Virus record (IMG/VR): IMGVR_UViG_3300042282_000085
Origin: a virus
Lineage: Duplodnaviria > Caudoviricetes
Strand: one strand, 5' to 3'
Length of the DNA stretch: 64,000 nt
In this document: positions 30,250 through 64,000 of the stretch, piece by piece
How positions within the stretch are numbered: the first letter of the stretch is position 1
Layout of the letters: the number at the start of each line of letters is the position of its first letter
Notes under the pieces: generated by a model
Database searches by the model: none
Told to the model about the DNA's origin: nothing
What the model saw: the letters and a program-made list of their open reading frames with translations, nothing else
Translations under genes and position numbers: made by a program

Positions 30250-31187
30250 ACGGACACCTTCGCTTTAATAGCCGGATGCGGATTGTAATCTTCCAGAATA
30301 AAGTCTTCGTATTTATAATCGAAGATTGAATCGGGCTTACGGGCAAACCGCATCTTGGGTAAAGGTCTAGGGTCCCGACTAAGTTGCTCCTGTACAATGG
30401 TGGGGTCCTGGAGGTGGTCCTGGTACAGGTGTGTGTCACCGGTTACATGGATGTACTCGCCCAGCTCTAGGTCACACTGCTGTGCAATCATCATCGTCAA
30501 TAGTGCGTAGGAGGCGATATTAAACGGCGCGCCGAGTTGGCTATCACAGCTACGCTGCAGCATCATGCAGCTTAGTTTGCCATTCTGTACGTAGAACTGA
30601 AAAAACGTATGGCACGCCGGTAGGGCAGCCTTGCCATTACGGACATTGTCCTGAGGGGATATAGATTCATCAGGAAGGTCAGCCGGATTCCAAGCACTGA
30701 CAATAATGCGTCTGGAGTTAGGGTTCGTCTTCAACGTATCGATAACATTTTGAATCTGATTAATGGTACGTCTAACTACCGCTATCGGATGTCCAGTGAC
30801 CTCATCCAACACTAGGCCGTGGTACGTGTATCCCTGCTCAAGGTACCTGGCAATCCCCTCAGGGCGAATCATTTTGGTATCGTCCCAGCTCACCCACTGC
30901 TTGGAGTAGATTGGTCCTAGGCGACCATCCTCCAGTGCCCATTCATCCCAAATGCGTACACCGTTCTCTTTCAGGGTATTGTTGTTGGTATCGCCGGAGA
31001 GGAACCATAAGAGTTCATGGATAATGGATTTAAGGTGAACCTTTTTGGTGGTAAGCAGTGGGAAACCTGCGCTCAGGTCAAAGCGTAGCATGCGACCAAA
31101 GACCGAGCGCGTACCTGTACCTGTACGGTCGCCCTTATCAATGCCGTTGTCCAAGATATCTTGGAGCAGATTTAGATATTGCTGCAT
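30246..31187 (-). CDS. thyA: Thymidylate synthase
   Basis: [38 protein letters not shown] and PFNIASY. Confidence 0.97.
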
Positions 31188-31330
31188 GTGTAGCCCTCAA
31201 TAGCTTTACTGAATTACGATTACGGATGGCAAGGTGTTAACGCGTGGGTCGGGTCCAATTCATCGAGGGTCCGTTGCAGGTCCCCAACAGTTATTATTTC
31301 CATTGCCTCAGTGTCACTCATGGCAACCCC

Positions 31331-31813
31331 TCACAGCTCAAAGGCAATGGCAGGGCTGTGTTCTCCCAACCAACGGGTGAAAGACTTCCTTACTAGGGCA
31401 TGTGCGGATGGAAGATACTCAGCGTCGTCAAAAATCACCACACTCACGCCATCGAACAGACGATGAAGTTCGTCCAAGTCGTTCCGATATAGTTTGCCGA
31501 TCTGTCGCCAAGTAAAGATTAGGTGGCCCTCGTCCAATGCGTCAACTCGGCTCAGAAGGGTTTGAACCTGGGTGGCATCTCGACAAATCAAGGCCACGTC
31601 GCTGCGGCGACCGATGACGTCCATGGCCCACGTGGACTTACCGGACTGACGGGGCAAACGGCTGCCGTAGGTGCGGAGCTCTTGAAAGAACCGACCGGGG
31701 TCGCCCATGGCGTGGCGAAGATCGAGTTCGCGATCGGTACCTATCAACTTTAGGGCGTGCTGTTCAGCGTGCGCCAGCGTTTGATTCAGCATCTCTTTGG
31801 TGGCTTCGTACAT
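31331..31813 (-). CDS. Small protein with terminase-ATPase-like Walker motifs
   Basis: RLPRQSGKST and VVIFDDAE in only 160 aa. Confidence 0.55.
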   Translation of the reverse strand: MYEATKEMLNQTLAHAEQHALKLIGTDRELDLRHAMGDPGRFFQELRTYGSRLPRQSGKSTWAMDVIGRRSDVALICRDATQVQTLLSRVDALDEGHLIFTWRQIGKLYRNDLDELHRLFDGVSVVIFDDAEYLPSAHALVRKSFTRWLGEHSPAIAFEL

Positions 31814-31834
31814 AGCTGCTTCCTTTTCATTGTT

Positions 31835-32041
31835 TTAAACTGGCTGTCCGTCGAGTACTTCCTGCTCATTGTAGACAGGTAGGCAATATCGACATTTCTT
31901 GGTTAGGCTATATGCCCAGGTTTTACCGCCATCTATTGTACATTTGTATCCGTAAACGGAGCGGGTACCTGTGCCTGTACGGTCACCCTTATCGGTGCCA
32001 TTTTCGATAACGTCGGCGGGTAGATCTGGATACTGTTGCAT
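31835..32041 (-). pseudogene. Truncated thyA-like 5' fragment fused to unrelated sequence
   Basis: First 31 aa ([31 protein letters not shown]) align with the ThyA N-terminus, then similarity ends. Confidence 0.7.
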
Positions 32042-33559: not shown

Positions 33560-34768
33560 TTAGTAAAGTCCCTCACTATAGAGTTCATTGCCCGACCCAC
33601 CATTGCGTTTAAAGTCAACGGGCTGACCAGCAGCTAGCGCCACCAGCAACGCCTCATGGCGATCCATGTACGTTTCCCATTGATCAATGAAGCCTTGTTC
33701 CCACTTACGATCATCCACGTAACCTAATTTAAGGTAGGCCTCTGCTTGAACGTGCATAGTGGGACAGAAGTGACGTGGGCCGACCAACATATAGTCACCG
33801 TTTCTACAGGCAGCACATACGACCTTACGCAGAGGCACTTCGGAAACAGACGCCTGTAGCGGTGCTGCGTACAGAACCACCTTAGCGGTCTTACGGTCCC
33901 GAACTCCCATCAGAAGCACAGGGTAGGGTAGGTCCTCCAAGGGCGATTCTTTACCACCAACCAATACAGGGGTGCGCTCTACTGGATAGCCTTTATCCAC
34001 CGTGTGACTATCCAAATTACAGTGGATGTGGTCCAATAGACCGATGGCTACTTTAAGGTTTACCACCGAGTAAATTCCCTTAACAACCTCTGTATGCGGT
34101 GTGTCATGCTGCACTGACCGCAGCTCATCCGGCAAGTCGCGATCATGCGGATCCAGCTCCATGAAACGCTGAAGCGCAGCCTTCAACTGATCCCGCTCTT
34201 GTTCTGCTTCAAAAAGGCGCTTAATTGATACAAGGTGCGTATCTGAAGCTACAACTTCACGCAATCGCTCCACCTCAGCCTGCAGCGGTGCCATGAGTGC
34301 CTCTGCAAACTCATACACATACGGGTTTAGGTCTTCGGATCCATGCGGCTGGGTTTTCAGTTTGAAGCCATTGGCCAGGACAAGTTCCTTGACCTGTTCA
34401 CGCTGCACCGTCTTTTCTCCTCTCCGGAAAGGCACTACCCAGCGACTGTAGCTCTTGGAGTAGTTGTACCAATTCCCATCGCCAAAGCACAGGCCCCAGG
34501 CGTTGTAGGAATTGTTCTCGGTAGAGGACCAGGCGTATTCAATAGACTGCACAGATGCTACAGTTCGGGCGTCGTAAAGTGCATCTAAGATCATCCTATC
34601 GGGCAATTCATACCCAAGCCCATGACAGTATGCCACACCCTCATGCCAATCACACTCTCTCCACAGTGACTGAGGGGCTACGGCCCAATACTCCGTATCC
34701 GTGATATGGAAAACAGTATCTCCGTTATCCAGCACTGCGCCAACCTCAATTGCATTGCTACTAGTCAT
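33560..34768 (-). CDS. Mosaic protein: N-terminal CLec-like DGR-target domain fused to unrelated phage modules
   Basis: Residues ~1-117 (GAVLDNGD..WAVAPQS..YC.GLGYELP..YAWSSTE..AW..WVVPFRR) are homologous to the C-terminal domains of 57902 and 59906; the remainder is unrelated. Confidence 0.75.
   Translation of the reverse strand: MTSSNAIEVGAVLDNGDTVFHITDTEYWAVAPQSLWRECDWHEGVAYCHGLGYELPDRMILDALYDARTVASVQSIEYAWSSTENNSYNAWGLCFGDGNWYNYSKSYSRWVVPFRRGEKTVQREQVKELVLANGFKLKTQPHGSEDLNPYVYEFAEALMAPLQAEVERLREVVASDTHLVSIKRLFEAEQERDQLKAALQRFMELDPHDRDLPDELRSVQHDTPHTEVVKGIYSVVNLKVAIGLLDHIHCNLDSHTVDKGYPVERTPVLVGGKESPLEDLPYPVLLMGVRDRKTAKVVLYAAPLQASVSEVPLRKVVCAACRNGDYMLVGPRHFCPTMHVQAEAYLKLGYVDDRKWEQGFIDQWETYMDRHEALLVALAAGQPVDFKRNGGSGNELYSEGLY
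34421..34537 (-). repeat. DGR-type variable repeat copy 3 (VR3)
   Basis: 117 bp, ungapped match to VR1/VR2 with differences only at codon positions 1/2. Confidence 0.85.
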
Positions 34769-51662: not shown

Positions 51663-53159
51663 ATGGCATTTCGTAAACATCACGGTATTACGCTGGCGAA
51701 CAACAGCTGGATCGAAAACATGCATGTTGAGCGCCTGGCAGCCGATCCGAGCCCGCTGGTCGCAGGTCGTCTCTGGTACAATGAGACCGACAAACTTCTG
51801 CGCTTCTCTACCCTGGATGCCGGCGGCGCCGTCATCATCCGCGCTATCGCCTCTGCTGAGCAGCTGCAGAGCGAAATTACTAACCTGAATACCACCCTGA
51901 CCACCTACGTAGACGACGAAATCGCCCTGGTCCAGGGTCAGGTAGATGCGCTGGGTAATGCGTTCAACTACGTTGGCGTACTGCCGGCACAGACCGGTGT
52001 AACCGGCACTGGTACCGATATCGACCCGTTCGTACTGGACGGTATGTCACCTGGATTCAAAGATGCCGGTGATTACTACAAGGTCACTCAGTCTGGTTAC
52101 TATCAGTTTGGCGCTACTGCAGCCATCTACGTTGATGTAAACGATGGCCTGGTATTCAACACCGCCGGTTCCCTGGACCGCATCAACAACCAGCAGTCTG
52201 ATGTTGCTGGTACTACTGATGAAGTAGTGGTGACTGGTTCTGTTGAAACAGGTTTCGTTGTCTCTATCGCTCAGGCGATTAAGGACTCTATCGCCGCTAA
52301 TGCCCAGGCAGTAGTGGACGAGGCGTCCCGCGCCCAGTCTGTAGAAGGTGACCTGGTTAACCTGACCACCACCGACAAAACCAACCTGGTTGCTGCTGTA
52401 AACGAAGTAGACGCTAACGCTGATGCTAACGCTACCGCTATCGCTCAGGAAGTAGCTGACCGTACGGCCGCTGACGTAGTCCTGCAGGGTAACATCGACG
52501 CTGAAGCTACTGCCCGTGGTGACGCTGATGCCCTGATTCAGGGTGAGTTGGATGCCACTCAGGCTGGTGCCGGTCTGGGTACCGATGGCGCCTACGTTGC
52601 TAATGCAGCAGCTAACTACATCGCTACCGCTACTAGCCTGAAGGGCGCTGATGACGCACTGGACGCTGCACTGAAGGCCGAAGCCGATCGTGCCGCTGCC
52701 GCTGAAGCTGTTAACGCTCAGGCTATCGCTGATGAAGTGACCCGTGCCACTGGTGCTGAGGGTACCCTGCAGGGTAATATCGATGCCGAAGCTCAGGCTC
52801 GTGCAGCTGCTGATGGCGACCTGACTACTTTGGCTACCACTGATAAAACCAACCTGGTTGCAGCAATCAACGAAGTACTGGGTCTGGCCGGCGACGGTAC
52901 TGACGCCCTGAAGACCGCTATCAACGGTAAGAAGGCCATCTACACTGCCGCTACTGCTCAGCTCTCACATACCTTCAACCACGGTTTCGCTGGTTCTGAC
53001 CTGGTCGTTACTGTACTGGTGTACGATAACTCTAACAGCAAGTGGTACAACGATTCTGTACTGGTTGAAGTGGATCCGGCCACCACTACCGTCACTGTAC
53101 CGTTGCAGGTTGCGGCCATCGTCAAGATCATCGTTGAAGATCTGTCTGACATCGCCTAA
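51663..53159 (+). CDS. Fibre protein with an Ala-rich coiled-coil shaft
   Basis: Repeats GDL..L.TTDKTNLVAA.NEV (x2) and LQGNIDAEA (x2); strong CTG/GGT/GCT codon bias; own terminator. Confidence 0.7.
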   Translation: MAFRKHHGITLANNSWIENMHVERLAADPSPLVAGRLWYNETDKLLRFSTLDAGGAVIIRAIASAEQLQSEITNLNTTLTTYVDDEIALVQGQVDALGNAFNYVGVLPAQTGVTGTGTDIDPFVLDGMSPGFKDAGDYYKVTQSGYYQFGATAAIYVDVNDGLVFNTAGSLDRINNQQSDVAGTTDEVVVTGSVETGFVVSIAQAIKDSIAANAQAVVDEASRAQSVEGDLVNLTTTDKTNLVAAVNEVDANADANATAIAQEVADRTAADVVLQGNIDAEATARGDADALIQGELDATQAGAGLGTDGAYVANAAANYIATATSLKGADDALDAALKAEADRAAAAEAVNAQAIADEVTRATGAEGTLQGNIDAEAQARAAADGDLTTLATTDKTNLVAAINEVLGLAGDGTDALKTAINGKKAIYTAATAQLSHTFNHGFAGSDLVVTVLVYDNSNSKWYNDSVLVEVDPATTTVTVPLQVAAIVKIIVEDLSDIA

Positions 53160-53668: not shown

Positions 53669-54589
53669 ATGACACGTTCATTGCAGTTTTTGAGCTCCAC
53701 CCAGTACACTGAGGTTGCAGCTCTGCCGGATAATCCGACGGTTGGTCAAACCGCCTTCATGAATGGCATTCTCTACATCTATGCCAGTCTGAATGGCGTT
53801 ACGACCTGGTTCCCGCTGAACCAACCCCAGTCGTTCTACATCCATAGCCAGGGTCTGGCCAAACTGACCTGGGAAATTCACCATAACCTGGGTAGCCGCG
53901 ATGCGATCATTGCGGTCTATGACATGGATAACCGCATGATGGATGCGGACATTCAGCATATCCAGAATACCGAAACCGGCGAGTGGTATATTGTTGCAAC
54001 CTTTACAGAAGCTGTTATGGGATACGCGGTGGTCTTTGGCCGTGAGAATATCTCTGCACCTTCTGTCGATGCTCAGGTCATTAACGCGACCGATGGTATT
54101 TACGTCGGCGGTGTCTCCGTGGCACTGGAAACCGATGTTGGTTTGTTGCTGCTGGAGCTGGACAAGAAGGTCGCCACGCTCGATATTGAAGATACTGTTA
54201 CCTCTACTGACGCTACCGTACCGTTGTCTGCCAACCAAGGTCGCGTGTTGAAAGGGCTGATCGACAATATCAATGCCCTGTTGGCGTCTGACGACACCAC
54301 GTTGGATGAACTCCAGGAAGTGGTCAACTTCATCAAACAGAACAAGGCCACCTTGGATAGTCTGGGCATCTCCAGCATTGCAGGTCTTCAGGATGCGTTG
54401 GATACACTGACCAACAACTTGGCAACCGAAGTGAGTCGTGCGACCGGTGCGGAAGCTACCCTGCAAACTAACATTGATGTCAAGTTGGATAAAACCGGCG
54501 TAGCAGCCGATTCCAGTAAGTTAGGGAATCTGCCTGCCTCGGATTACATCACTGTCCACGATACCATCGATATGGGTGAGATTGCATAA
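53669..54589 (+). CDS. Tail fibre-like protein
   Basis: TWEIHHNLG domain, PLSANQGRVLK and LDELQEV fibre repeats, AADSSKLG, and C-terminal IDMGEI. Confidence 0.7.
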   Translation: MTRSLQFLSSTQYTEVAALPDNPTVGQTAFMNGILYIYASLNGVTTWFPLNQPQSFYIHSQGLAKLTWEIHHNLGSRDAIIAVYDMDNRMMDADIQHIQNTETGEWYIVATFTEAVMGYAVVFGRENISAPSVDAQVINATDGIYVGGVSVALETDVGLLLLELDKKVATLDIEDTVTSTDATVPLSANQGRVLKGLIDNINALLASDDTTLDELQEVVNFIKQNKATLDSLGISSIAGLQDALDTLTNNLATEVSRATGAEATLQTNIDVKLDKTGVAADSSKLGNLPASDYITVHDTIDMGEIA

Positions 54590-54635: not shown

Positions 54636-55292
54636 ATGCATTGTGAGTTATTACGTGGTACTGAGAAGATACGAGGGCCTCTACCCTATAAGCCCGCAAT
54701 GCTGGCTAAGGTGTTTGCCCGATTGGGACTAAAGTTCCCGCCTTTACCGCAAACCTTAACGGCTCCGGTCTCTGATCTCAGTGCCACCCATACCCTTTAC
54801 CCTGTTACAATTAACAAACCACCCGCCTCTCGGCAGGAGGACAGTGTCCTAGCCAGCCGTACTGTGGATGCGAATGGTGTTACCTATACGTACAATACAG
54901 TACCCCGTAACTATGATGCACTTAGATTACAGCTAAAGGAACGCATTTCGGGACGCCATGCCCTCTATGAGCTCAATTACGTAACCTTTGATTCGGTTGC
55001 AATTAAAGCCGACCTAGAAGCCCGTATTAATGCTGCTGAAATCGTGGAGAGTTTTCAAAAAGGTAAAATCAACAGCATTAAGTGGCGCGGTAAGAATGGC
55101 AAGATAACGGTTGAAAGCATCGAAACCATGCAGGCTATCTATGACACTATCTTCCGGTACCTGCATATAGGGTTTGCGGCTAAAGAGATCGCAGAAGACA
55201 CGGTTGATACCTCTAGTGATGCAGAGTTGGTATCTTTAGATCCGATTGCTATATTCGATACCGCCGTAACGACCTTAGAGTCTGTAATGTAG
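54636..55292 (+). CDS. Tail-fibre assembly/chaperone-like protein (DUF4376-like)
   Basis: DLEARINA...IKWRGKNG...MQAIYD; paralog of 59159..59839. Confidence 0.55.
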   Translation: MHCELLRGTEKIRGPLPYKPAMLAKVFARLGLKFPPLPQTLTAPVSDLSATHTLYPVTINKPPASRQEDSVLASRTVDANGVTYTYNTVPRNYDALRLQLKERISGRHALYELNYVTFDSVAIKADLEARINAAEIVESFQKGKINSIKWRGKNGKITVESIETMQAIYDTIFRYLHIGFAAKEIAEDTVDTSSDAELVSLDPIAIFDTAVTTLESVM

Positions 55293-56096: not shown

Positions 56097-56927
56097 ATGT
56101 TTCAATTCGAGAACATCCAATTCAAGCGTGGTGATAAAGCCACGAACGATGCGTACGTAGGGAAACCCGGTACCATCTCCATCGACCGTGAGTCCATGAA
56201 CGTCCGTGTGCACGATGGTGTGACACCGGGCGGTTTATTCAGTGTAACCCGGGGCGCTGCCTTTGATGAGTTGGCGGCAGAGTTTATTGTTGCCAGCGAT
56301 AGCTTTACAGCGACCATGGGTCAAACCGTTTTTACCTTGACCAATGTAAGTCTGGAGAACCCAGACCGTGTGAAGGTTAAGATCAACGGCATGCAGACCA
56401 ACAACTGGGTGGTCAGTGGCGTTAACCGCATTACGGTGAACGACAGTATTCTGATCAACGACACCATTTTGATTTACCAGTACCGTACGCTGGATGATGT
56501 GGTCAGTGCAGCGGTTGAAGGTATGGACGTTGAGGCACTGCTAATTAGCATGCTGGAGTCTGTAACCAACATCGGTGGCATTAACATTGATGACATCCTA
56601 ACCGTTAACAGCACAGGTGCCTTTGAGCAGATGGTGGTGGATGCGATTGGTTCTGCTTTGGGTGAGTCGGGTAGCTTGGCTAACTTGGTAACCACAGACA
56701 CCTTGCAGTCTGCGATTAATGGCATAGACATTACGGCTGCTGTTCGTCGCGTACTGGACGGTATTCCTGATGTCGATTATCCGATTACCCATGTACTGAC
56801 TACTGCGGATAACATTGACCTAGGTCACATGGAGTTTGTCTTTGACGGTAACGAGTCTCTGGACCCCAGTGTCCCGAACGATACGCTGACTGTCTTTGAC
56901 CGCATTGACTTTGGTATCGTGAACTAA
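56097..56927 (+). CDS. Tail fibre protein with an Mtd-like N-terminal domain
   Basis: IQFKRG...YVGKPGTISID...VRVHDGVTPGG matches the Bordetella BPP-1 Mtd N-terminal pattern; no variable repeat. Confidence 0.7.
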   Translation: MFQFENIQFKRGDKATNDAYVGKPGTISIDRESMNVRVHDGVTPGGLFSVTRGAAFDELAAEFIVASDSFTATMGQTVFTLTNVSLENPDRVKVKINGMQTNNWVVSGVNRITVNDSILINDTILIYQYRTLDDVVSAAVEGMDVEALLISMLESVTNIGGINIDDILTVNSTGAFEQMVVDAIGSALGESGSLANLVTTDTLQSAINGIDITAAVRRVLDGIPDVDYPITHVLTTADNIDLGHMEFVFDGNESLDPSVPNDTLTVFDRIDFGIVN

Positions 56928-56945
56928 GGTTAGAGGTGACAATCG

Positions 56946-57398
56946 ATGGGATTTCTATATGAAGGTGAGGATATAGGGCGGTATATCGAAATCCGGGATG
57001 GCCGTGAAACGTTCGTGGTCACACGGGAGACCATTCGAGACGTTAAGGTAGTGCCTACCGATATCGTACTACCCGACCACTGGAAAGGTAAGGCCTTTTA
57101 CCGATTACGGATGGACTTTGATATTTTCGGTACGCTAATACCGAAGCACTACACCTCAGACGGTGCCAGTGTACCCAGGCTGTTCTGGTCCCTCTATCCG
57201 CCGGTAGGGCGCTACCTGTTAGCGGCCTTTTTGCATGATTGGAAATTGGACCAGCGTCATGGATGGGACGAATCAAACCGTGCCTTTGATGAAGCTATGC
57301 GTCACATCGGTATCGCGCGTCGCCGTCATTGGGTAATCATGCGCTCGGTTCAATTAAACGGGTGGGTACAATCCACCTTTTTTGGGGACCCTAAATAG
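56946..57398 (+). CDS. DUF1353-domain protein
   Basis: IP..YTSDGASVPRLFW...AAFLHDW. Confidence 0.8.
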   Translation: MGFLYEGEDIGRYIEIRDGRETFVVTRETIRDVKVVPTDIVLPDHWKGKAFYRLRMDFDIFGTLIPKHYTSDGASVPRLFWSLYPPVGRYLLAAFLHDWKLDQRHGWDESNRAFDEAMRHIGIARRRHWVIMRSVQLNGWVQSTFFGDPK

Positions 57399-57407
57399 GA
57401 GAGCTCA

Positions 57408-57773
57408 ATGAAACGACATATCGCAGGCTTCTTATTCGTCGCGGCTGTATCGTTGGTGTTACCCGCGTGCACTACATCCCAACCGGCTGTATTGGAAGAC
57501 GGGTACCAGCTCGGGGATGCCTCTAAAGTAGTCGCCGGGGAAGCTTTTAATTTAATGATGCTGCGGTACCGATATTGTTATACGTATGCCCCTGAGTCCA
57601 GGGACGCTATCCTGGAGATTATTCAGGCCTTCTATCCGGAGTATCCCACTGAAGGGATTTGTACGGATATGGGTGATCTGGTAAAGCAATTGAAGGGTGT
57701 GGATGCTACTACACTCGAAAAGGCATACGACCTACCGAAGGATATCGACCACGAGTCAAGTGGGTTAGAGTAA
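57408..57773 (+). CDS. Lipoprotein
   Basis: MKRH + hydrophobic core + LPAC lipobox; AGGAG RBS. Confidence 0.68.
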   Translation: MKRHIAGFLFVAAVSLVLPACTTSQPAVLEDGYQLGDASKVVAGEAFNLMMLRYRYCYTYAPESRDAILEIIQAFYPEYPTEGICTDMGDLVKQLKGVDATTLEKAYDLPKDIDHESSGLE

Positions 57774-57901
57774 AGGACACTAATTCACGTTTTACAGGGT
57801 GGCTCTACTGTAACCCTCTGACAGAAAATTGCAGTGGAGGAACTACCCTGCCGTTTTAAAATAGCCCCTTGATTAACCGTTAGTAACTGTAGGAAGGACT
57901 T

Positions 57902-58972
57902 ATGGCCTTAAAACAAATGAGCGGTGTGGTTACGTGGAAGCGCTTTACCACGAACAGCATCGAAACGTACTTGGGTAAGCCGGGTGAACCGATTGTCGAC
58001 ATGCGCACTGGTGAGCCGGCAATTCGTTTATGTGATGGATTGACACCGATGGGTCACCCAATTGGGGTTATTCCAACGTTGACTGGTGTGGCACGCCCTA
58101 TCATTATTAGCCCGGTTAATAATGCTACAGATGTCGATACCTCACCGGTGATTACTGCCAGTCAATTTAACGGCATTAACGGCGACGGCAGTATCCCAAC
58201 ACATGCGGCGACTATCTGGAACATTGCAACGGATGCCGCCTTTACCCAGATGACGTATAATAGTGGTGAAACGGCACTGAATAAAACGACACTGGATCTT
58301 TCCAGTGTAGGAGTAACACTGGAGCAAGGTAGTGTTTACTATATACGCGTAGCGTATAAGAGTGACAGTGGTGTGGTGTCCGACTGGAGTGCTACCGTTA
58401 AGATTACGACCAGTACTATGGGAATTGGCACAGTACTACCGGACGGTGGTATCGTTTTCGGTCAGGAAGGGGGCGACTGGCTGGTAGTAGCCCCGGCTTC
58501 ACAGCGTACGACTAAAATGTGGGGACTCTACGGTACCGATACCAGTCTTCCAAACTGGACGAGTGGCAGTGGGACTACTACTACCCCTACTGACCCTAAC
58601 TCATCAGAGTACAATACTGACGTACTGACGAGTCCTACTTATAACTCCATTAACGATGGACAGGGTAGTATCGGCTCACCCGCTGCAGAGTACTGCCGTA
58701 GTCTAGGGTACGACTTACCCAATGCGAGGGATCTGCAGCTTATTTACAATAATCGAGCTCAGATCGATGCAGCGGACTCTAGTGGAGGCGGTGCCACACT
58801 CTCCGCTATTCAATCTGGCACTGCACCCGGCTCCTCCACGACGTACGTCTGGTCCTCTACCGAGTACGGTTCCAACTTCGCCTGGTACCTGCTCTTTGGC
58901 AATGGGAATTGGTACAACATCAACAAGAACGTCAGTATCTGGGTAGTGCCTTTCCGGAGAATACCCGTTTAA
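57902..58972 (+). CDS. Mtd-like receptor-binding protein, DGR target 1
   Basis: Mtd-like N-terminus (WKR...YLGKPGEPIVD...LCDGLTPMG), Ig/FN3-like middle (YYIRVAY...SDWS) and C-terminal CLec-like domain ending YVWSSTE...AW...WVVPFRRIPV. Confidence 0.85.
   Translation: MALKQMSGVVTWKRFTTNSIETYLGKPGEPIVDMRTGEPAIRLCDGLTPMGHPIGVIPTLTGVARPIIISPVNNATDVDTSPVITASQFNGINGDGSIPTHAATIWNIATDAAFTQMTYNSGETALNKTTLDLSSVGVTLEQGSVYYIRVAYKSDSGVVSDWSATVKITTSTMGIGTVLPDGGIVFGQEGGDWLVVAPASQRTTKMWGLYGTDTSLPNWTSGSGTTTTPTDPNSSEYNTDVLTSPTYNSINDGQGSIGSPAAEYCRSLGYDLPNARDLQLIYNNRAQIDAADSSGGGATLSAIQSGTAPGSSTTYVWSSTEYGSNFAWYLLFGNGNWYNINKNVSIWVVPFRRIPV
58844..58960 (+). repeat. DGR-type variable repeat copy 1 (VR1)
   Basis: 17 differences to VR2 in 117 bp, none at a third codon position. 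Confidence 0.88.
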
Positions 58973-58982
58973 ACGGGTATTC
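58959..58982. other. Perfect 24-bp palindrome abutting VR1 (candidate DGR target hairpin)
   Basis: GAATACCCGTTT|AAACGGGTATTC. Confidence 0.7.
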
Positions 58983-59032
58983 ACTTTTAATACCGAGTCA
59001 CAGTGAGTGTCCTTTAAAGGACACTGCTTTTA

Positions 59033-59121
59033 GGGCTTGCCCTTTGTAGGGCTGCCCTTACTACCCTTACTCCATTTAAAAGCCCTACAGGCCACCCAGG
59101 CCCTTTGTAGGGACTGGGTCC
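59033..59121 (+). repeat. 89-bp structured non-coding repeat, copy A
   Basis: Matches 60925-61013 apart from a 10-nt central block and 2 substitutions; two CCCT-TTGT-AGGG stem-loops. Confidence 0.88.
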
Positions 59122-59158
59122 AAATTTACAATACTTCTTTCATAAAAGGATTATTCCA

Positions 59159-59839
59159 ATGAAATGTGAAATCATTCGTAATGGCAACACCATCGTTTCT
59201 GAGATGGACTTTAACGTAAACCGTGTACGTGACATTGTTGCCCGTCAGGGTGGCGATTACCGCCTCGTACCCAATGCTCTAACTGCTGCCATCCATATTG
59301 GCTCTATTCAGATCCTCCCAGTTAAATACGATATGCCAGTTACTACTCAGGCCCAGCGCTGCGGTAAGCCGGTACGTACCGTATCAGACTCACTGGTTAC
59401 CTACTCTTACCCGGTTGAAGAGAAAACCGAAGACGAGCTTCGCAATGAGCTTCTTACCCAGGTGTCCCGTATTCATGAAAGTTATGACAGCGGTCGTATG
59501 GAGTATCAGGGCGTCTCAATTGCGGTAGACCTGGAGGCCCGTGTCAATGCAGAAGGCGTACTCAAGCGTTTTGAGCGTGGTCTGATGTCGGCTACTCAGT
59601 GGAATGGTCAGGCGGTAACCTCAACCGATGAGAACGGTAATGAGGTCACTGGTCCTTCTAAGGTGGCCATTGGCTCTACCGCTGATATGCAGGCGCTGTA
59701 TGATGCAGTCTTTGCACACCTCGAAGCCGGTTTCATAGCTAAAGAAATGCTCAAAGCGGAGCTCGAATCTGCTGATGCCGTTACATTGGCGACTGTAGAC
59801 GTTAATGCGCGTTGGAATGAGATTGTAGAGACACTCTAA
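59159..59839 (+). CDS. Tail-fibre assembly/chaperone-like protein (DUF4376-like)
   Basis: MKCEII...DLEARVNA...QWNG...MQALYD; paralog of 54636..55292. Confidence 0.55.
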   Translation: MKCEIIRNGNTIVSEMDFNVNRVRDIVARQGGDYRLVPNALTAAIHIGSIQILPVKYDMPVTTQAQRCGKPVRTVSDSLVTYSYPVEEKTEDELRNELLTQVSRIHESYDSGRMEYQGVSIAVDLEARVNAEGVLKRFERGLMSATQWNGQAVTSTDENGNEVTGPSKVAIGSTADMQALYDAVFAHLEAGFIAKEMLKAELESADAVTLATVDVNARWNEIVETL

Positions 59840-59905
59840 GGTGTAACTAGTGATTAGGGGGTGGGTGCCCACCCCCTTTGTATACGGTTTATAGGAGCAT
59901 GTAAG

Positions 59906-60892
59906 ATGCCAGATTTACAATTGAAACGCGGTACACCGGCTCAGGTAGATGCCTATCAGGGGCCAGCGGGTGAAATCGTAGTCGATAGCCAGAACTGGAA
60001 TATGCGGCTACAGGACGGTGTTACAGCTGGTGGTGTATTACTAGGCAGTAACGAGAACCTGATTGCACGCCCTGAGATTTTGAGTCCCATTCAGGGTAGT
60101 GTCATTGGGGACCAGAGCCCTATTCTGGTTAGTACCGCGTATAGTGGGGAAGGGGTCCACAGTGCGAGTCAGTGGCAGATCAGTGGAGAGGTTGGGTTTG
60201 TAAACCTTATCCACGATAGCGGACGCAATACAGTTAGTCTATTGAGCTATAACTTACTGGATGCAGGTGTAACCTTGACCCGTGGGGTAACGCTGTACGT
60301 ACGGGTGCGTCACGAATCCGGTACTGCAGGCTGGAGTGAATGGAGTGAAGCACTAAGCTTCAGTGTACAGGCAATGGAGCCGGGTACTGTACTGGATGAC
60401 GGTGGCATTATATTTGCACAGGATGGTAATGATTGGCTCGTTGTAGCGCCTGCTAGTCTGCGTGCACTGAGAACCTGGAACGATGGGTCTACTAGTTGGG
60501 TAGACACCCCACTCCCTAACTATACTTCTAATCCAGAGCAAGACGTTAACGATGGTACTTACAATACGGATGTACTGGTTAACGTGACGCAGGAGCAGAA
60601 GGCCGCTACCTACTGCCGTTCTATCGGCTATGATTTGCCGAATGCGGCAGAGCTTCGTTTAATTTACAATAATCGAGCTCAGATCGATGCAGCAGATACC
60701 AGCGGAGGCGGGGCCACACTCTCCGCTATCCAATCCGGCACTGCACCCGGCTCCACCACGGCGTACGTCTGGTCCTCTACCGAGTACAATTCCTTCGTCG
60801 CCTGGGCCCTGTACTTTGGCAATGGGAATTGGTACGCCAGCATCAAGCACAACAGTGTCTGGGTAGTGCCTTTCCGGAGAATCCCAGTCTAA
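59906..60892 (+). CDS. Mtd-like receptor-binding protein, DGR target 2
   Basis: ATG 59906 with AGGAG RBS. LQLKRGT...YQGPAGEIVVD...LQDGVTAGG Mtd-like N-terminus; same architecture as 57902. Confidence 0.87.
   Translation: MPDLQLKRGTPAQVDAYQGPAGEIVVDSQNWNMRLQDGVTAGGVLLGSNENLIARPEILSPIQGSVIGDQSPILVSTAYSGEGVHSASQWQISGEVGFVNLIHDSGRNTVSLLSYNLLDAGVTLTRGVTLYVRVRHESGTAGWSEWSEALSFSVQAMEPGTVLDDGGIIFAQDGNDWLVVAPASLRALRTWNDGSTSWVDTPLPNYTSNPEQDVNDGTYNTDVLVNVTQEQKAATYCRSIGYDLPNAAELRLIYNNRAQIDAADTSGGGATLSAIQSGTAPGSTTAYVWSSTEYNSFVAWALYFGNGNWYASIKHNSVWVVPFRRIPV
60764..60880 (+). repeat. DGR-type variable repeat copy 2 (VR2)
   Basis: 117-bp ungapped homolog of VR1 and VR3. Confidence 0.88.
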
Positions 60893-60917
60893 TCGCCTTA
60901 AGGCGATGACTGGGATT
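60880..60917. other. Hairpin abutting VR2 (candidate DGR target hairpin)
   Basis: AATCCCAGTC-ta-ATCGCCTT|AAGGCGAT-GACTGGGATT. Confidence 0.7.
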
Positions 60918-60924
60918 TGCCTTT

Positions 60925-61013
60925 GGGCTTGCCCTTTGTAGGGCTGCCCTTACTACTTTGAGTACTTTTAAAAGCCGTACAGGCTACCCAGGCCCTTTGT
61001 AGGGACTGGGTCC
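60925..61013 (+). repeat. 89-bp structured non-coding repeat, copy B
   Basis: See copy A at 59033-59121. Confidence 0.88.
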
Positions 61014-61042
61014 TTTTCATTACGATATAGACTCACACCACA

Positions 61043-61084
61043 TACTCTTTAAGGCCTATCCTAGCGGATAGGCCTTAAAGAGTA
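61043..61084. terminator. 19-bp-stem inverted repeat
   Basis: TACTCTTTAAGGCCTATCC-TAGC-GGATAGGCCTTAAAGAGTA. Confidence 0.6.
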
Positions 61085-61182
61085 ATTTTCAGAGTGACTG
61101 GCGTGGGTCAAATCCTATAGCCTTGTAGCCGGTGCACTATAGTCACACGGCTGACACTCGTCACGATTATAGGACACCTACT

Positions 61183-62046
61183 ATGTCTGAACTATTAGAC
61201 CTTCGTTATCAATTTGACCCTACTGGTCACTCCACCGATAACCTTATTATCGATGAGCTACACACTGTTTCACAGTCGGGTCCCGCACTTATCATTCCAC
61301 GGGAAGGCCTGATGTACACTCCAGGCTTTACGGTGCGCCGGGCATCCTCTAACGTACCGCTTATCCAGAATACGGACTTCCACTTTATTTCTCTGGACGA
61401 ATTCATTACCGCAAAAACGGGTATTGAAACCGCCTCCGCGATTCAGTTTGATAAAGCTGAACACTTTGGCGACTTTGTAATCACCTACCAGGCTGTCGGT
61501 GGATATGAGGGGCGCTTTAACCGTCTGGTACAAGACCTAATCGATGCCATCGAGCGTGCTAAGGATGCTGACGTTGAATGGACTCGAGTTAAGAATAAAC
61601 CGGCTCAGTATCCTCCAGAGTACCATAACCATGAACTCATCTCCATTACTGGATGGGAGAAGTTTACGGTTAAGCTCCATGAATTAAAGGAGGCTATTAT
61701 CGATAGTCATTCCCTAGGTTCATCTGCACTCTCCCTTTCTCAAGCGGATTCGCGTATCCTAGCCCTCATTGCCGAGATGCAGCGGGAGATACAGTACCTG
61801 AATGGGGACATTGCGGATATCCTGGAGCGCATGAAGCGCTACATGGAGTTTGACATTGACTTTGGGGAGCTTGGTAAATTGCGAGAGTGGCCTGAGCGTG
61901 ACGTGTTCTACGTATCCTCAATTGACCTGCAAGAGAAGTCCAATCCCTTTATGGACTTTGGTGAGATTAAGGGTCCAGAACGCAATCAGTGGGATGATGT
62001 ACCGAATGTCAGCTCCTATGACATGGGTGAGCTTTCCAACAATTAA
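61183..62046 (+). CDS. Baseplate/tail-associated protein (FDPTG family) with three C-terminal D[FM]GE motifs
   Basis: YQFDPTG..DNLI.DE.H, YQAVGG and YPPEYH; ATG 61183 preferred over GTG 61132. Confidence 0.68.
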   Translation: MSELLDLRYQFDPTGHSTDNLIIDELHTVSQSGPALIIPREGLMYTPGFTVRRASSNVPLIQNTDFHFISLDEFITAKTGIETASAIQFDKAEHFGDFVITYQAVGGYEGRFNRLVQDLIDAIERAKDADVEWTRVKNKPAQYPPEYHNHELISITGWEKFTVKLHELKEAIIDSHSLGSSALSLSQADSRILALIAEMQREIQYLNGDIADILERMKRYMEFDIDFGELGKLREWPERDVFYVSSIDLQEKSNPFMDFGEIKGPERNQWDDVPNVSSYDMGELSNN

Positions 62047-62084
62047 CGGCATAAAACCTCAGAGCCCCGAAGGGCTCTGAGTCT

Positions 62085-62258
62085 TTACCGAGCATAGCGC
62101 AACTCTTTATTCAACTTCAGTAATTGACGCTTCGCCTTTTCCAGTCGGCGTTTCGCATCTTTTTCTTTATTTGAATGAGGAGTAGCCTCTGCCAATACTG
62201 CACTTGCTTCTCGAATGGCTTTTTCAGTATTGCGGATTTTGTTTTGCAGATCGATCAT
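62085..62258 (-). CDS. Small basic coiled-coil protein (57 aa)
   Basis: Below the cutoff. MIDLQNKIRNTEK...KELRYAR*, with AGGA RBS and a CTCAGAGCCC-CGAA-GGGCTCTGAG hairpin downstream. Confidence 0.5.
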   Translation of the reverse strand: MIDLQNKIRNTEKAIREASAVLAEATPHSNKEKDAKRRLEKAKRQLLKLNKELRYAR

Positions 62259-62267
62259 CGGGGGTCC

Positions 62268-62420
62268 TTATTCGCTATAGCCAAATGCGTTATTCGCCGC
62301 CATTAGACAGCGATAGAGTGTCTCGTTAGTCTCGGCAACCGAGCCTGATTCGATATGCAGTCCTAACGAAGGGAGTGTTTTGGTATCCAGACTTACGTCG
62401 TACATTGTCTTAGCCTCCAT
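62268..62420 (-). CDS. Small hypothetical protein (50 aa)
   Basis: MEAKTMYDVSL...FGYSE*, tandem with the 57-aa ORF. Confidence 0.4.
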   Translation of the reverse strand: MEAKTMYDVSLDTKTLPSLGLHIESGSVAETNETLYRCLMAANNAFGYSE

Positions 62421-62469
62421 GTTTAATCCATATCATACCGAGTACAATAATTCCTTAGGAGGAATCCTT

Positions 62470-63099
62470 ATGTCCACTAAACCGACTGTAGAAAACATCA
62501 TTTTAACCGTCATGGAAATTGAATCCGGACGTAAACTGATAGGCCAAAAGATTGATCCCAATGATACGAATGGGGGCTACACGAATGACCCCGACGATCC
62601 GGGCGGAGAGACTAATTGGGGTTGGACAGAAGGCACTCTTAAGGCCCACGGCATTAAAACGCATCCCCGTGACCTTACGTTCCAGCAAGCCTTTGACTAT
62701 TATAAGCGTATTTTCTGGACACGTTCGGGTGCGGAAGCGGTCTACGATTTTCAACCCTGGCTGGCCCGTACAATTTTTAATTACGGTGTGCACGCTGGAT
62801 ACCATAAGGCTGCACGTAACCTACAGACCCTTTTAAACCTCCATAATAACCAAGGCAAGCGTTGGGCAGACCTGATCGTTGATGGGGCGGTGGGTGCACG
62901 AACACTGGATGCACTGCAGGCCTACATCCGTATTCGCAAGGGGGAGATTGGTGAGGATGTACTCTTTACCGACTATGCGATTATGATGGGTGCTTTCTAC
63001 CAAGAGCTTGCCATTAAAAACGACCGTTATGAGAAGTATACGTATGGGTTCTCTACTCGTGCGATGTTAGAGCTGAAAGAATATTTTACTCGCAGTTAA
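62470..63099 (+). CDS. Glycoside hydrolase family 108 endolysin with a peptidoglycan-binding domain
   Basis: GGYTNDPDDPGGETNWG, LQ..LN, LIVDGAVGARTL and EKYTYGF..R; ATG 62470 with AGGAGG RBS. Confidence 0.88.
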   Translation: MSTKPTVENIILTVMEIESGRKLIGQKIDPNDTNGGYTNDPDDPGGETNWGWTEGTLKAHGIKTHPRDLTFQQAFDYYKRIFWTRSGAEAVYDFQPWLARTIFNYGVHAGYHKAARNLQTLLNLHNNQGKRWADLIVDGAVGARTLDALQAYIRIRKGEIGEDVLFTDYAIMMGAFYQELAIKNDRYEKYTYGFSTRAMLELKEYFTRS

Positions 63100-63128
63100 C
63101 CACAGGTCTATGTAATGAGGATTGGAGT

Positions 63129-63740
63129 ATGCGCAAGGATCACTCGATACAGCGGTACTATACCGGCATAGGGTCCCGTCAGGCCCCTGCATGGGCACAA
63201 ACCCTTGCTACTGAGATAGCCGCTAAGCTCTCTGCTACACACGTTCTACGCCACGGGGATGCCAGTGGCATGGATGAGGCCTTTAGTCAGGGATCGGCCG
63301 GGAGAGAGGAGATATGGGCCCCCTGGAAGGGGTTCCGTAAAGACGAGCGCTCTTCCATTACCCGACAGCGCATCCAATCCCCTGCACAGCAGATCGAATC
63401 GGGCAACATGCTTATTCGAGAAGGCATCTGCCCGCACTTCTTTAACATGAAGCCCTCTATTCAGGCACTCTTTGCCCGTAACGTGTTTCAGATTACTGGT
63501 CAGCGTTCTGAGATGGGTGAGTGTGATCCCCTATCGGATTTTGTCGTCTATTGGGCACCAGAAAACACTAAGGGTGTCATATCCGGAGGTACTCGAATAG
63601 CTGTTTACCTGGCCCGCAGTATGGGAATTCCTACCTACAACCTTGACATTAAATCTCAACGTGATGAAATTCTAGACCACCTTGACATTCAATATGTAGA
63701 GGATGATGACTGGTACTCCGCACCATATTTAACAGTATAA
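63129..63740 (+). CDS. DprA/SMF-like (SLOG superfamily) protein
   Basis: YTGIGSR, LRHGDASGMDEAF, RNVFQI and GGTRIAV..A....IPTYNL. Confidence 0.78.
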   Translation: MRKDHSIQRYYTGIGSRQAPAWAQTLATEIAAKLSATHVLRHGDASGMDEAFSQGSAGREEIWAPWKGFRKDERSSITRQRIQSPAQQIESGNMLIREGICPHFFNMKPSIQALFARNVFQITGQRSEMGECDPLSDFVVYWAPENTKGVISGGTRIAVYLARSMGIPTYNLDIKSQRDEILDHLDIQYVEDDDWYSAPYLTV

Positions 63741-63815
63741 ACTATCCCCGTCCATTTTGGACGGGGATATCCATATATGCTGTAATCGGCATAGGTCAAG
63801 CGATAGACCGGTTAC

Positions 63816-64000
63816 TTAGCCTGTCGTGGATGTGTTCCCAGCTTCCTCTAGCGCGCTCACACGACTAATTAGTGACTGAATGGTAGCTGACATATCCGCA
63901 AGGTCACTGTTTAGATTAGACGCCGCGGTTTCTAACGAATTTACCTTATCCGATAGTGCCACTAACCCATCGGCAACATCTTTAACCCTACTATCCAGCT
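63816..64000 (-). CDS. C-terminal end of a coiled-coil protein (partial)
   Basis: ...LDSRVKDVADGLVALSDKVNSLE...ISRVSALEEAGNTSTTG*, with a hairpin at 63744-63768 downstream. Confidence 0.55.
   Translation of the reverse strand, partial: LDSRVKDVADGLVALSDKVNSLETAASNLNSDLADMSATIQSLISRVSALEEAGNTSTTG

Follow-up and report, generated by a model that had tools for sequence, protein, structure and literature searches.

In a diversity-generating retroelement (DGR), a template is copied by a reverse transcriptase that makes its mistakes at adenines. Among the known systems closest to the locus described here is that of the 42-kb temperate Bordetella phage BPP-1, in which the tropism determinant Mtd (PDB 1yu0-1yu4) combines an Mtd_N attachment domain with a beta-sandwich middle and a lectin-like end, and in which the variable repeat (VR) lies at the extreme C-terminus and is matched to a template (TR) that follows an AAC-codon logic. 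The BPP-1 DGR has one target, which adjoins the reverse transcriptase (RT), and the invariant 3' end of its repeat is followed immediately by a hairpin. The rule for this hairpin has been defined experimentally: it must lie at the repeat end, and the requirement is specific for the loop but leaves the stem free (PMC3240598).

Variable repeats are also found in DUF1566-type C-type-lectin-like domains, as in the Legionella surface lipoprotein LdtA (“category d”, CLec2), and these were classed apart from Mtd-type VRs by Wu et al. (2018, PMC5758913). Lcl's C-terminal domain (Lcl-CTD, 8q4e), which is not diversified, is C-type-lectin-like and trimeric, and its ligand is bound on the top surface (PMC11162425). 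DGRs with multiple targets and DGRs with remote targets are already known; some 15% of DGRs possess more than a single target, examples being those of Treponema denticola and of Stenotrophomonas, the latter with eight tandem targets, and in such systems one TR serves several VRs, the targets can be far from the RT, and the 5' boundaries and mutation patterns can vary by target (PMC5758913). A pairing of a tail fibre with a DUF4376 fibre chaperone is found in the Alteromonas phages V22 (gp26/gp27) and A5 (gp8/gp9).

The stretch of DNA analyzed here, referred to below as the window, comprises 64,000 nucleotides of an uncultured phiKZ-like jumbo phage related to the Chimalliviridae. It contains two neighbouring tail-fibre-like genes, A and B, in each of which the C-terminal repeat has been separately rewritten by the DGR of the phage. 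The mechanism at work in the A/B system is a known one, of which this is a clean natural case; the kind of phage is unusual. It resembles BPP-1 in the N-terminal domain, the beta-sandwich middle, the position of the repeat in a lectin-like end, the codon logic of the template and the hairpin that follows the repeat, but it differs in that two tandem targets lie 90 kb or more from the RT (as located in the relative G001) and are accompanied by further targets, in that the lectin domain is of the DUF1566/Lcl_C type and the middle is a canonical FN3 domain, and in that the phage is a lytic-type jumbo phage. The VR-bearing domain is shared in type with LdtA and matches the Lcl structure, although in A and B it is joined to Mtd_N and FN3 domains. 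The known multi-target DGRs are mostly cellular, or have their targets within the cassette, whereas the present one belongs to a Chimalliviridae-related jumbo phage, and the independent rewriting of two targets can be seen directly in natural haplotypes. No DGR in a jumbo phage of this kind was found in the literature searched or among the GenBank phage RT matches listed; a compost-phage paper considered in this connection (PMC13220884) concerns a different phage, which has no DGR. The genes and repeats of the locus are as follows.

57902-58972, + strand: gene A, an ORF of 356 aa with a diverged Mtd_N-like N-terminus, an FN3-like middle and a DUF1566/Lcl_C-type lectin-like C-terminus that ends in VR_A
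58835-58960, + strand: VR_A, a 126-nt variable repeat forming the last 42 full codons before I-P-V-stop
59159-59839, + strand: DUF4376-fold gene of 226 aa, a probable tail-fibre chaperone, between A and B
59906-60892, + strand: gene B, 328 aa, with Mtd_N-like residues 1-48, FN3 at 50-157 and a DUF1566/Lcl_C-type lectin-like domain at about 156-326; its C-terminus ends in VR_B
60755-60880, + strand: VR_B, a 126-nt variable repeat at the end of gene B
34421-34536, - strand: VR_C, a third variable repeat belonging to this DGR, close to the 5' end of the ORF 33560-34768 (-)

Both reading frames are present where a first-pass annotation of the sequence had placed them, with gene B read from the ATG at 59906; this is its likely start, since it yields the 328-aa form beginning MPDLQLKRGT that matches an entry in a protein collection, and the GTG at 59861 chosen by the ORF tool lies in frame further upstream. 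The two proteins are paralogs that align over their full length with 48% identity, and the 3' 285 nt of A (58691-58975) and of B (60611-60895) are 83% identical. Within the last ~76 codons the differences cluster at codon positions 1-2, where the inferred template reads AAC or AAT, and some third-position changes are seen as well upstream of the VR.

The annotation had also proposed a three-part architecture of the Mtd kind for both proteins. The three parts are recovered by profiles, AF2 modelling, Foldseek and VIA, but the likeness to Mtd holds for the N-terminus and not for the lectin domain, which belongs to the DUF1566/Lcl_C type represented by Legionella LdtA. An Mtd_N-type N-terminus is present in the A/B family: the Pfam model Mtd_N (PF18454) matches 6 of 14 family members (best E 2.3e-9) and gene B itself at E 1.1e-3 (19.3 bits, under the 26.3 cut-off), a family profile matches residues 2-48 of Mtd at E 1.5e-3, and the motif QLKRGT...GEIVVD...DGVTAGG of gene B has a diverged counterpart in gene A (KRFT...GEPIVD...DGLTPMG), where the domain is visible only via alignment to B. 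The C-terminal part is a DUF1566/Lcl_C C-type-lectin-like domain in both sequence and fold. Lcl_C matches 10 of the 14 family members in Pfam, with gene B at E 7e-6 and gene A at E 3.9e-4, both under the 34.9-bit cut-off, and the family profile matches 8q4e at E 0.011, a match that is lost when a profile of the C-terminal part only is used. The AF2 monomer model of gene B (pLDDT 94.8) includes a C-type-lectin-like fold, with VIA scores of Z 13.3 to 4eps and Z 12.8 to the Lcl-CTD 8q4e (115 residues aligned, 25% identity), as well as Z 10-12.4 to FN3 domains. The top five Foldseek matches of the same model are Mtd variants (E 7e-6 to 2e-5), with a TM of only ~0.2 over the whole chain. Gene B had no match among GenBank phage proteins, and NCBIfam gave nothing useful for the proteins of the module.

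The gene between A and B, which begins 187 bases past gene A, had been described as chaperone-like, and this is consistent with what is found. Its AF2 model (pLDDT 92.7) has as its top matches in BFVD a set of DUF4376 proteins (E 3e-12 to 1e-10), although the Pfam DUF4376 match of the 226-aa protein (E 1.4e-3) is under the cut-off, and among solved folds no chain reached Z 8 or above. A paralog (E 5e-32) lies at 54636-55292 behind another fibre gene, so the window holds two pairs of fibre and DUF4376 genes (53669-54589 with 54636-55292, and gene A with 59159-59839). A predicted DUF4376 fold encoded directly behind a fibre gene is the arrangement of V22 and A5, and it suggests that the product is probably a tail-fibre chaperone that would assist the folding of fibre A; the present case differs from those phages in that the Pfam match falls below the cut-off, the chaperone role being predicted from the fold, and in that gene B has no downstream DUF4376 gene of its own.

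These domains and neighbours suggest that A and B would be trimeric receptor-binding fibres on the virion. It is rather unlikely, though worth weighing, that they are genuine DGR targets whose products do something else, as decorations of the capsid or tail or as non-virion binding proteins that act during infection. FN3/Ig domains commonly decorate the heads and tails of phages, the lectin-like part matches phrog_4245 (E 2.6e-12 to gene A), a family with no known function, and short lectin-like proteins encoded outside the structural module are likewise targets of this DGR. Against this, the N-terminus matches Mtd_N, the domain that serves for attachment in the tropism determinant of BPP-1, and the best fold matches in the PDB are Mtd variants; the genes sit in a structural module that contains fibre repeats, tail-fibre PHROGs, the DUF4376 chaperone-type gene, the phrog_2163 virion structural protein and an endolysin; and the hairpin and 92-nt element described below are confined to the three fibre-type targets.

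The template with which the repeats are compared here is the TR of G001, a closely related 195-kb phage record which is 99.2% identical to the window over 8.1 kb spanning the A-B region. It can serve as a proxy for the TR of the window phage because 125/126 of its positions are conserved in a lineage in which the flanking sequence shows no more than 93.8% identity. Every mismatch of VR_A (15/15) and of VR_B (18/18) falls on a template adenine; adenines occupy 42 of 125 template positions, and the bias is far beyond chance. The TR and the VRs all agree in their final 21 nt, save for VR_A of the lineage L026, and the adenines within this end are never mutated. A non-adenine marker in the template, T118C, is accompanied by the same change in the cognate VR of the lineage that carries it, and in L026 it is the sole difference of VR_B from the TR that does not involve an adenine. 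The VR_A of L026, on the other hand, has seven non-adenine differences, three of them inside the invariant 3' end, so gene A may be decaying in that lineage.

Comparison of nearly identical natural genomes separates the change in the repeats from any change in their surroundings. Over 5,881 bases, all 34 differences between the window and the contig L012 lie inside the 252 bases of the two VRs (17 in each) and none elsewhere, and over the 7.4 kb at 56562-64000 all 42 differences from G001 lie in the VRs (18 in VR_A and 24 in VR_B). Between otherwise identical contigs VR_A differs at 17-18 sites and VR_B at 17-24, and the protein variants include seven distinct forms of VR_A and six of VR_B, the seven variants of gene A differing almost solely at VR codons. 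Both repeats are being diversified in natural populations. Numerous contigs are broken off where VR_A ends or where VR_B starts, as would be expected if a single sample contained several versions of the repeats. Each repeat is rewritten independently of the other, because contigs with identical VR_A sequences (L028 and L029) have unrelated VR_Bs; in addition, L012 and L028 differ at 3 sites in VR_A and 18 in VR_B, and the window and L027 share VR_B exactly (0 sites) and differ at 1 site in VR_A. The annotation had proposed that the two determinants are randomised separately from one template, with one retained while the other explores. The separate randomisation, and haplotypes in which one fibre is kept while the other changes, are seen directly in the L028/L029 and window/L027 comparisons. 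For a single template the evidence is the TR of G001; searches of the window with two invariant cores (<=3 mismatches) and with the G001 TR (word-7 blastn) gave only the three VRs, and Avd and RT are also absent from it.

Recombination or gene conversion among VR-like copies or co-infecting strains could in principle generate variable repeats without mutagenesis by an RT, and G001, with its approximately 10 repeat copies, offers possible donors. In addition, at TR positions 63-64 the VR_As of G001 and L026 have the same double change away from adenines, which looks inherited or exchanged, and this counts against RT mutagenesis, since full-length homing should have erased such a change. That origin is nevertheless highly improbable for the variation as a whole. 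Apart from these two sites in the VR_A of G001, near-identical sibling contigs differ from the TR on adenines only; no VR variant copies another VR of the same genome; the flanks are base-identical, with 0 differences in 5.9-7.4 kb; and a 1-codon insertion in an AAC run, found in one VR_B variant, fits the template slippage described for DGRs.

The best overall explanation, which is very probably correct, is that A and B are duplicated tail-fibre-type proteins rewritten separately from one DGR cassette. In each, an Mtd_N-like domain would provide attachment and a single FN3 domain would act as a spacer ahead of a C-type-lectin-like DUF1566 domain, whose final ~42 codons would constitute the variable repeat. 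A single cassette elsewhere in the genome, made up of a fibre-type target, Avd, TR and RT, would yield adenine-mutagenised cDNA from a 126-nt template rich in AAC/AAT codons, and this cDNA would, in events separate from one another, take the place of the repeat in gene A, gene B and further targets. The invariant 21-nt end of the repeat and a TTAA-loop DNA hairpin immediately behind it would be the likely targeting signals, and a 92-nt element may also contribute.

Such a cassette is carried by G001, where the TR lies just upstream of an RT (RVT_1, 67.5-68.7 bits; only 28.6% identity to Brt) and is preceded by a candidate Avd with a weak bAvd match (E 8e-4, under the cut-off). Scans for TR-copy patterns recovered G001 only among viral contigs and one further contig, L025, in a single metagenome; the cognate-target contig L024 stops short of the TR. 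The annotation's count of two determinants is too low. VR_C, whose ortholog lies at 106351-107470 in G001, has 15 of its 16 mismatches on TR adenines and appears to belong to a non-virion binding protein; a third fibre-type target of 431 aa is found in G001 just upstream of avd-TR-RT; and about six shorter repeat copies are present in that genome besides the fibre-type targets.

The kilobase-identical genomes that differ only in two 126-base tracts form a very clean natural record of DGR action. In the haplotypes one fibre tip is constant and the neighbouring tip is replaced, a pattern that supports the idea that several diversified fibres allow a phage to explore new receptors while keeping a working one. 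They also locate in a phiKZ-like jumbo phage a DGR that is active, has multiple targets and acts remotely. Phages of this kind are usually viewed as strictly lytic, and the Chimalliviridae shield their DNA in a protein nucleus. This prompts the question at which site reverse transcription and homing occur; should the phage build a nucleus, that would have to be the place of action for the RT, Avd and template RNA.

The sequence elements that might direct homing lie directly behind the two repeats.

58959-58982, + strand: hairpin/cruciform A, a stem of 10 bp whose TTAA loop includes the stop codon, beginning 2 nt before the repeat end
59007-59024, + strand: a perfect 18-nt palindrome, the second after gene A, unique in the window
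59030-59121, + strand: 92-nt conserved element, copy A, two hairpins with the common motif GCCCTTTGTAGGG
60880-60917, + strand: hairpin/cruciform B, a TTAA loop on a stem of about 17 paired bases whose sequence is unlike that of hairpin A
60922-61013, + strand: 92-nt conserved element, copy B, 90% identical to copy A

The invariant 3' end is thus followed at once by a hairpin or cruciform in both genes, and the position of hairpin A fits the BPP-1 rule (PMC3240598). As DNA, hairpin A folds with -10.1 kcal/mol (z -2.3) and hairpin B with -16.3 kcal/mol (z -5.5, with 0/200 shuffles equally stable); hairpin A also stands directly after the cognate target in G001 and L024, and a hairpin of the B type after the cognate VR in L025, while none follows VR_C. 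The fold of copy A of the 92-nt element has a z of -3.8, and in the whole of G001 the element occurs in exactly three copies, one behind each fibre-type target. Neither the hairpins nor the 92-nt element match an Rfam family; the only match, one to a miRNA model below the threshold, lies at a palindrome (61043-61084) and was taken as chance.

These elements may direct homing to the repeats. It is also conceivable, if somewhat doubtful, that they are ordinary terminators or regulatory repeats which were co-duplicated with a fibre gene and have no part in DGR targeting. A scan for promoters and terminators, whose counts were not clearly above those of shuffled sequences, placed a terminator-like flag on hairpin A only, which has a T-rich tail; the second hairpin of copy B of the element is followed by TTTT; and the three fibre-type targets are paralogs, so a common 3' flank could be inherited. 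Inheritance accounts less readily for two hairpins that agree in the TTAA loop and in their offset from the repeat end although their stems are unrelated, a combination which fits the experimental requirement in BPP-1 (PMC3240598). Nor does it readily account for an element that is 90-100% conserved although it is separated from the VR by 40-70 nt that lack such conservation, or for the greater non-adenine drift of those targets that lack a hairpin.

A broader picture can tentatively be drawn. The phage, of lytic type and a jumbo-sized relative of the nucleus-forming Chimalliviridae, would use one trans-acting DGR to hypermutate separately, over ~100 kb, several non-virion lectin-like genes and no fewer than three fibre-type genes for receptor binding, A and B among them, with efficient targets marked by a composite tag made up of the 21-nt invariant end, the TTAA-loop hairpin and a dedicated 92-nt element not previously described for DGRs. 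The targets with and without the hairpin and 92-nt element together constitute a natural test of DGR target-site rules.

The first-pass annotation described two tandem fibre-type genes with closely similar ends and another gene lodged between them, and this description is accurate: both ORFs are present, their 3'-terminal 285 nt are 83% identical, and a 226-aa gene separates them.

57902-58972, plus strand: gene A, ORF of 356 aa
59159-59839, plus strand: 226-aa gene with a DUF4376-type fold, between genes A and B
59906-60892, plus strand: gene B, ORF of 328 aa, beginning MPDLQLKRGT

For gene B the ORF tool gives a GTG start at 59861, while the ATG at 59906 yields the form present in the protein collection. 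Over their full lengths the two proteins are 48% identical, so the genes are paralogs, and their differences in the last ~76 codons fall mostly at codon positions 1-2 of particular codons. In contig L026, whose lineage shares 95% identity with the window, the gene A ortholog (244-1623) has an additional repeat of the Ig/FN3 type and encodes 459 aa.

When the invariant cores of the 126-nt variable repeats of these genes (VR_A and VR_B) are used as the query, a third copy, VR_C, is found within the minus-strand ORF 33560-34768, at 34421-34536. Adenine at every variable site is found in 0/3 of these copies, so none of them is the template, and a sensitive blastn search of the whole window yielded no fourth copy or template repeat (TR). 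The closest record, IMGVR_UViG_3300042255_000023 (G001; 195,544 bp, estimated 71% complete), is 99.2% identical to the window across 8.1 kb of the A-B region and contains 13 repeat matches. It encodes an RVT_1 reverse transcriptase (RT), just upstream of which lie an A-rich TR of 126 nt with 13 AAC and 3 AAT codons, a weakly bAvd-like ORF and a 431-aa fibre-type target, the cognate target. When the G001 TR, in which adenine occupies 42 of 125 template positions, is used for comparison, the mismatches that fall at template adenines are 15/15 for VR_A, 18/18 for VR_B and 15/16 for VR_C. This TR can reasonably stand in for that of the window, because the TR of the L025 lineage is identical to it at 125/126 positions though the flanks are only 93.8% identical. 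The adenine pattern identifies the window repeats as variable repeats of a diversity-generating retroelement (DGR), with a template predicted to lie outside the window; in G001 the distance from the A and B targets to the RT is at least 90 kb.

Both repeats are being rewritten at present, each separately. Between the window and G001, across 56562-64000, there are 18 differences in VR_A, 24 in VR_B and none elsewhere, and a 5,881-base comparison of the window with contig L012 yields 34 differences (17 in VR_A, 17 in VR_B, 0 elsewhere). Protein clusters at 90% identity hold six distinct variants of B and seven of A, whose differences are nearly confined to VR codons; in one of the B variants a codon is inserted within the AAC run, and DGR template slippage is on record as a source of such insertions (PMC5758913). 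Many contigs break where VR_A ends or VR_B starts, as would be expected of assemblies when a sample is heterogeneous. The independence of the two repeats follows from pairs of haplotypes. Contigs L028 and L029, each with 0 non-VR differences from the window, have 0 differences in VR_A and unrelated VR_Bs, that of L029 with a one-codon insertion; L012 and L028, again with 0 non-VR differences from the window each, differ at 3 positions in VR_A (in its 3' part) and 18 in VR_B; and the window and L027 differ at 1 position in VR_A (in the 3'-most variable codon), 0 in VR_B and 6 outside the VRs. The first of these pairs bears out the proposal that the two repeats are randomised separately, and together the comparisons provide exceptionally clean population evidence that two adjacent fibres are rewritten independently. 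A non-adenine substitution adds to this picture: T118C occurs in the TR of the L025 lineage and likewise in its cognate VR, a natural marker of transfer from TR to VR, and it is the sole non-adenine difference in VR_B of L026, which is assumed to share the TR variant of L025.

The VR_A ortholog of G001 (84364-84488) and that of L026 (1486-1611) share a non-adenine double change at TR positions 63-64 (TTT GGC to TTC AGC, Gly to Ser), on either side of which their adenine-site patterns differ. Simple full-length homing does not readily account for this pattern, which may instead stem from selection or from patchy incorporation of cDNA. VR_A of L026 carries 7 non-adenine changes, 3 of them synonymous in the otherwise invariant 3' end; these 3' changes suggest drift, and target A may be decaying or drifting in that lineage while VR_B stays current.

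The 21 nt at the 3' end of the repeat do not differ between the TR and any of the VRs, and the adenines there are never mutated. In genes A and B this end is followed by the structures listed here.

58959-58982, plus strand: hairpin A, 10-bp stem, TTAA loop containing the stop codon, directly after the invariant end
60880-60917, plus strand: hairpin B, ~17-bp stem unlike that of A, TTAA loop, directly after the invariant end
59030-59121 and 60922-61013, plus strand: copies A and B of a 92-nt element, 90% identical to each other

The cognate targets of G001, L024 and L025 each have a hairpin of type A or type B, and none follows the repeat at VR_C, at another short-protein copy in G001 or at the TR. 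In phage BPP-1 the VR is directly followed by the hairpin, which has a stem of free sequence and a sequence-specific loop (PMC3240598), and the window hairpins fit this rule in position, free stem and fixed loop. The 92-nt element is a double hairpin sharing the motif GCCCTTTGTAGGG; it matches no Rfam family, is better conserved than the stretch separating it from the VR, and occurs in exactly 3 copies in the 195 kb of G001, one per fibre-type target (one at 175818-175909). It may act as a new cis element of the DGR, or serve these genes as a common terminator or regulatory signal. Perfect or near-perfect palindromes lie beside the elements (61043-61084 and 59007-59024); a sub-threshold Rfam match of one of them to a miRNA was taken as chance.

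The proposed Mtd architecture holds in its layout logic and in its N-terminal domain, while the lectin domain is of another class. A whole-chain PDB search with the gene B model (AlphaFold2, 38-sequence alignment, pLDDT 94.8) placed five Mtd variants best (E 7e-6 to 2e-5, TM ~0.2), and the N-terminal domain of the family is homologous to that of BPP-1 Mtd, the family profile matching Mtd residues 2-48 in sequence (E 1.5e-3). Structure comparison by domain assigns residues 50-157 to FN3 (Z 10-12.4) and matches residues ~156-326 to the Bacteroides fimbrial protein 4eps (Z 13.3) and the C-terminal domain of Legionella Lcl (8q4e, Z 12.8, 25% identity), a C-type-lectin-like DUF1566 domain that forms trimers, with ligand binding at the top surface (PMC11162425). 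The window lectin domain thus falls in the class of DGR targets with a DUF1566 domain, of which Legionella LdtA is a representative (PMC5758913). Among 14 family members Pfam matches Mtd_N in 6 and Lcl_C in 10, the window proteins scoring under the curated cut-offs. We infer that A and B are displayed on the virion and bind receptors.

The intervening gene had been called chaperone-like, and its predicted fold agrees: the model (pLDDT 92.7) finds DUF4376 proteins as its best viral structure matches (E 3e-12 to 1e-10) and, more weakly, that of Pseudomonas phage Noxifer (E 6.5e-7), with no match among solved structures. DUF4376 proteins encoded just after the fibre genes of Alteromonas phages V22 and A5 are experimentally defined fibre chaperones, and the window gene, similarly placed, would by analogy have this role. 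Two further genes of these types lie upstream.

54636-55292: paralog of the 226-aa gene, after fibre gene 53669-54589 (Phage_fiber_rpt)
56097-56927, plus strand: Mtd_N-like fibre gene without a VR (IQFKRGD...GTISID...DGVTPGG)

The product of the latter has the Mtd_N-like N-terminus without the lectin domain and is probably a further fibre with the common attachment domain. Phrog_2163 virion structural proteins, tail-fibre PHROGs and a GH108 endolysin are encoded nearby, and the gene neighbourhood is consistent with a late module for structure and lysis. The small ORF 57408-57773 (plus strand; start placed further downstream by gene callers on sibling contigs, giving 93 aa), immediately 5' of gene A, encodes an N-terminus resembling a signal peptide, with LPAC as a possible lipobox; its product could, with some uncertainty, be a phage lipoprotein adjoining the fibre genes. 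Internal direct repeats occur at 52339-52877 within a 498-aa tail-fibre gene (51663-53159).

By its gene content the phage is classed as phiKZ-like: it has a match to the phiKZ internal head protein family, and its closest cultured relative by SNF2 helicase is Noxifer (Chimalliviridae; 44.8% amino-acid identity). The closest GenBank relatives of the RT are in Burkholderia, Pseudomonas and Shewanella phages of 42-57 kb (~44% identity), and the largest genome among 70-odd of 107 RT-bearing GenBank phage records is 137 kb. The mechanism is not new, since earlier work describes multi-target DGRs (~15% of DGRs, with up to eight targets), remote targets (in Treponema) and VRs of the DUF1566 type (PMC5758913). 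What is particular here is the phiKZ-like phage type, for which no DGR description was found in the literature searched, the joining of a DUF1566 lectin domain to a fibre N-terminus of the Mtd_N kind, and the remoteness of targets A and B from the RT in G001.

The mosaic protein that carries VR_C close to its N-terminus has 402 aa (ORF 33560-34768, minus strand) and is encoded in an apparently non-structural region near a DNA ligase gene. The 5' ends of two genes on the minus strand hold a pair of 86-nt repeats (31102-32041). At the VR_C locus of G001 (104.9-109.5 kb) there is an expanded cluster of about six VR-like copies, and several of these have many non-adenine changes.
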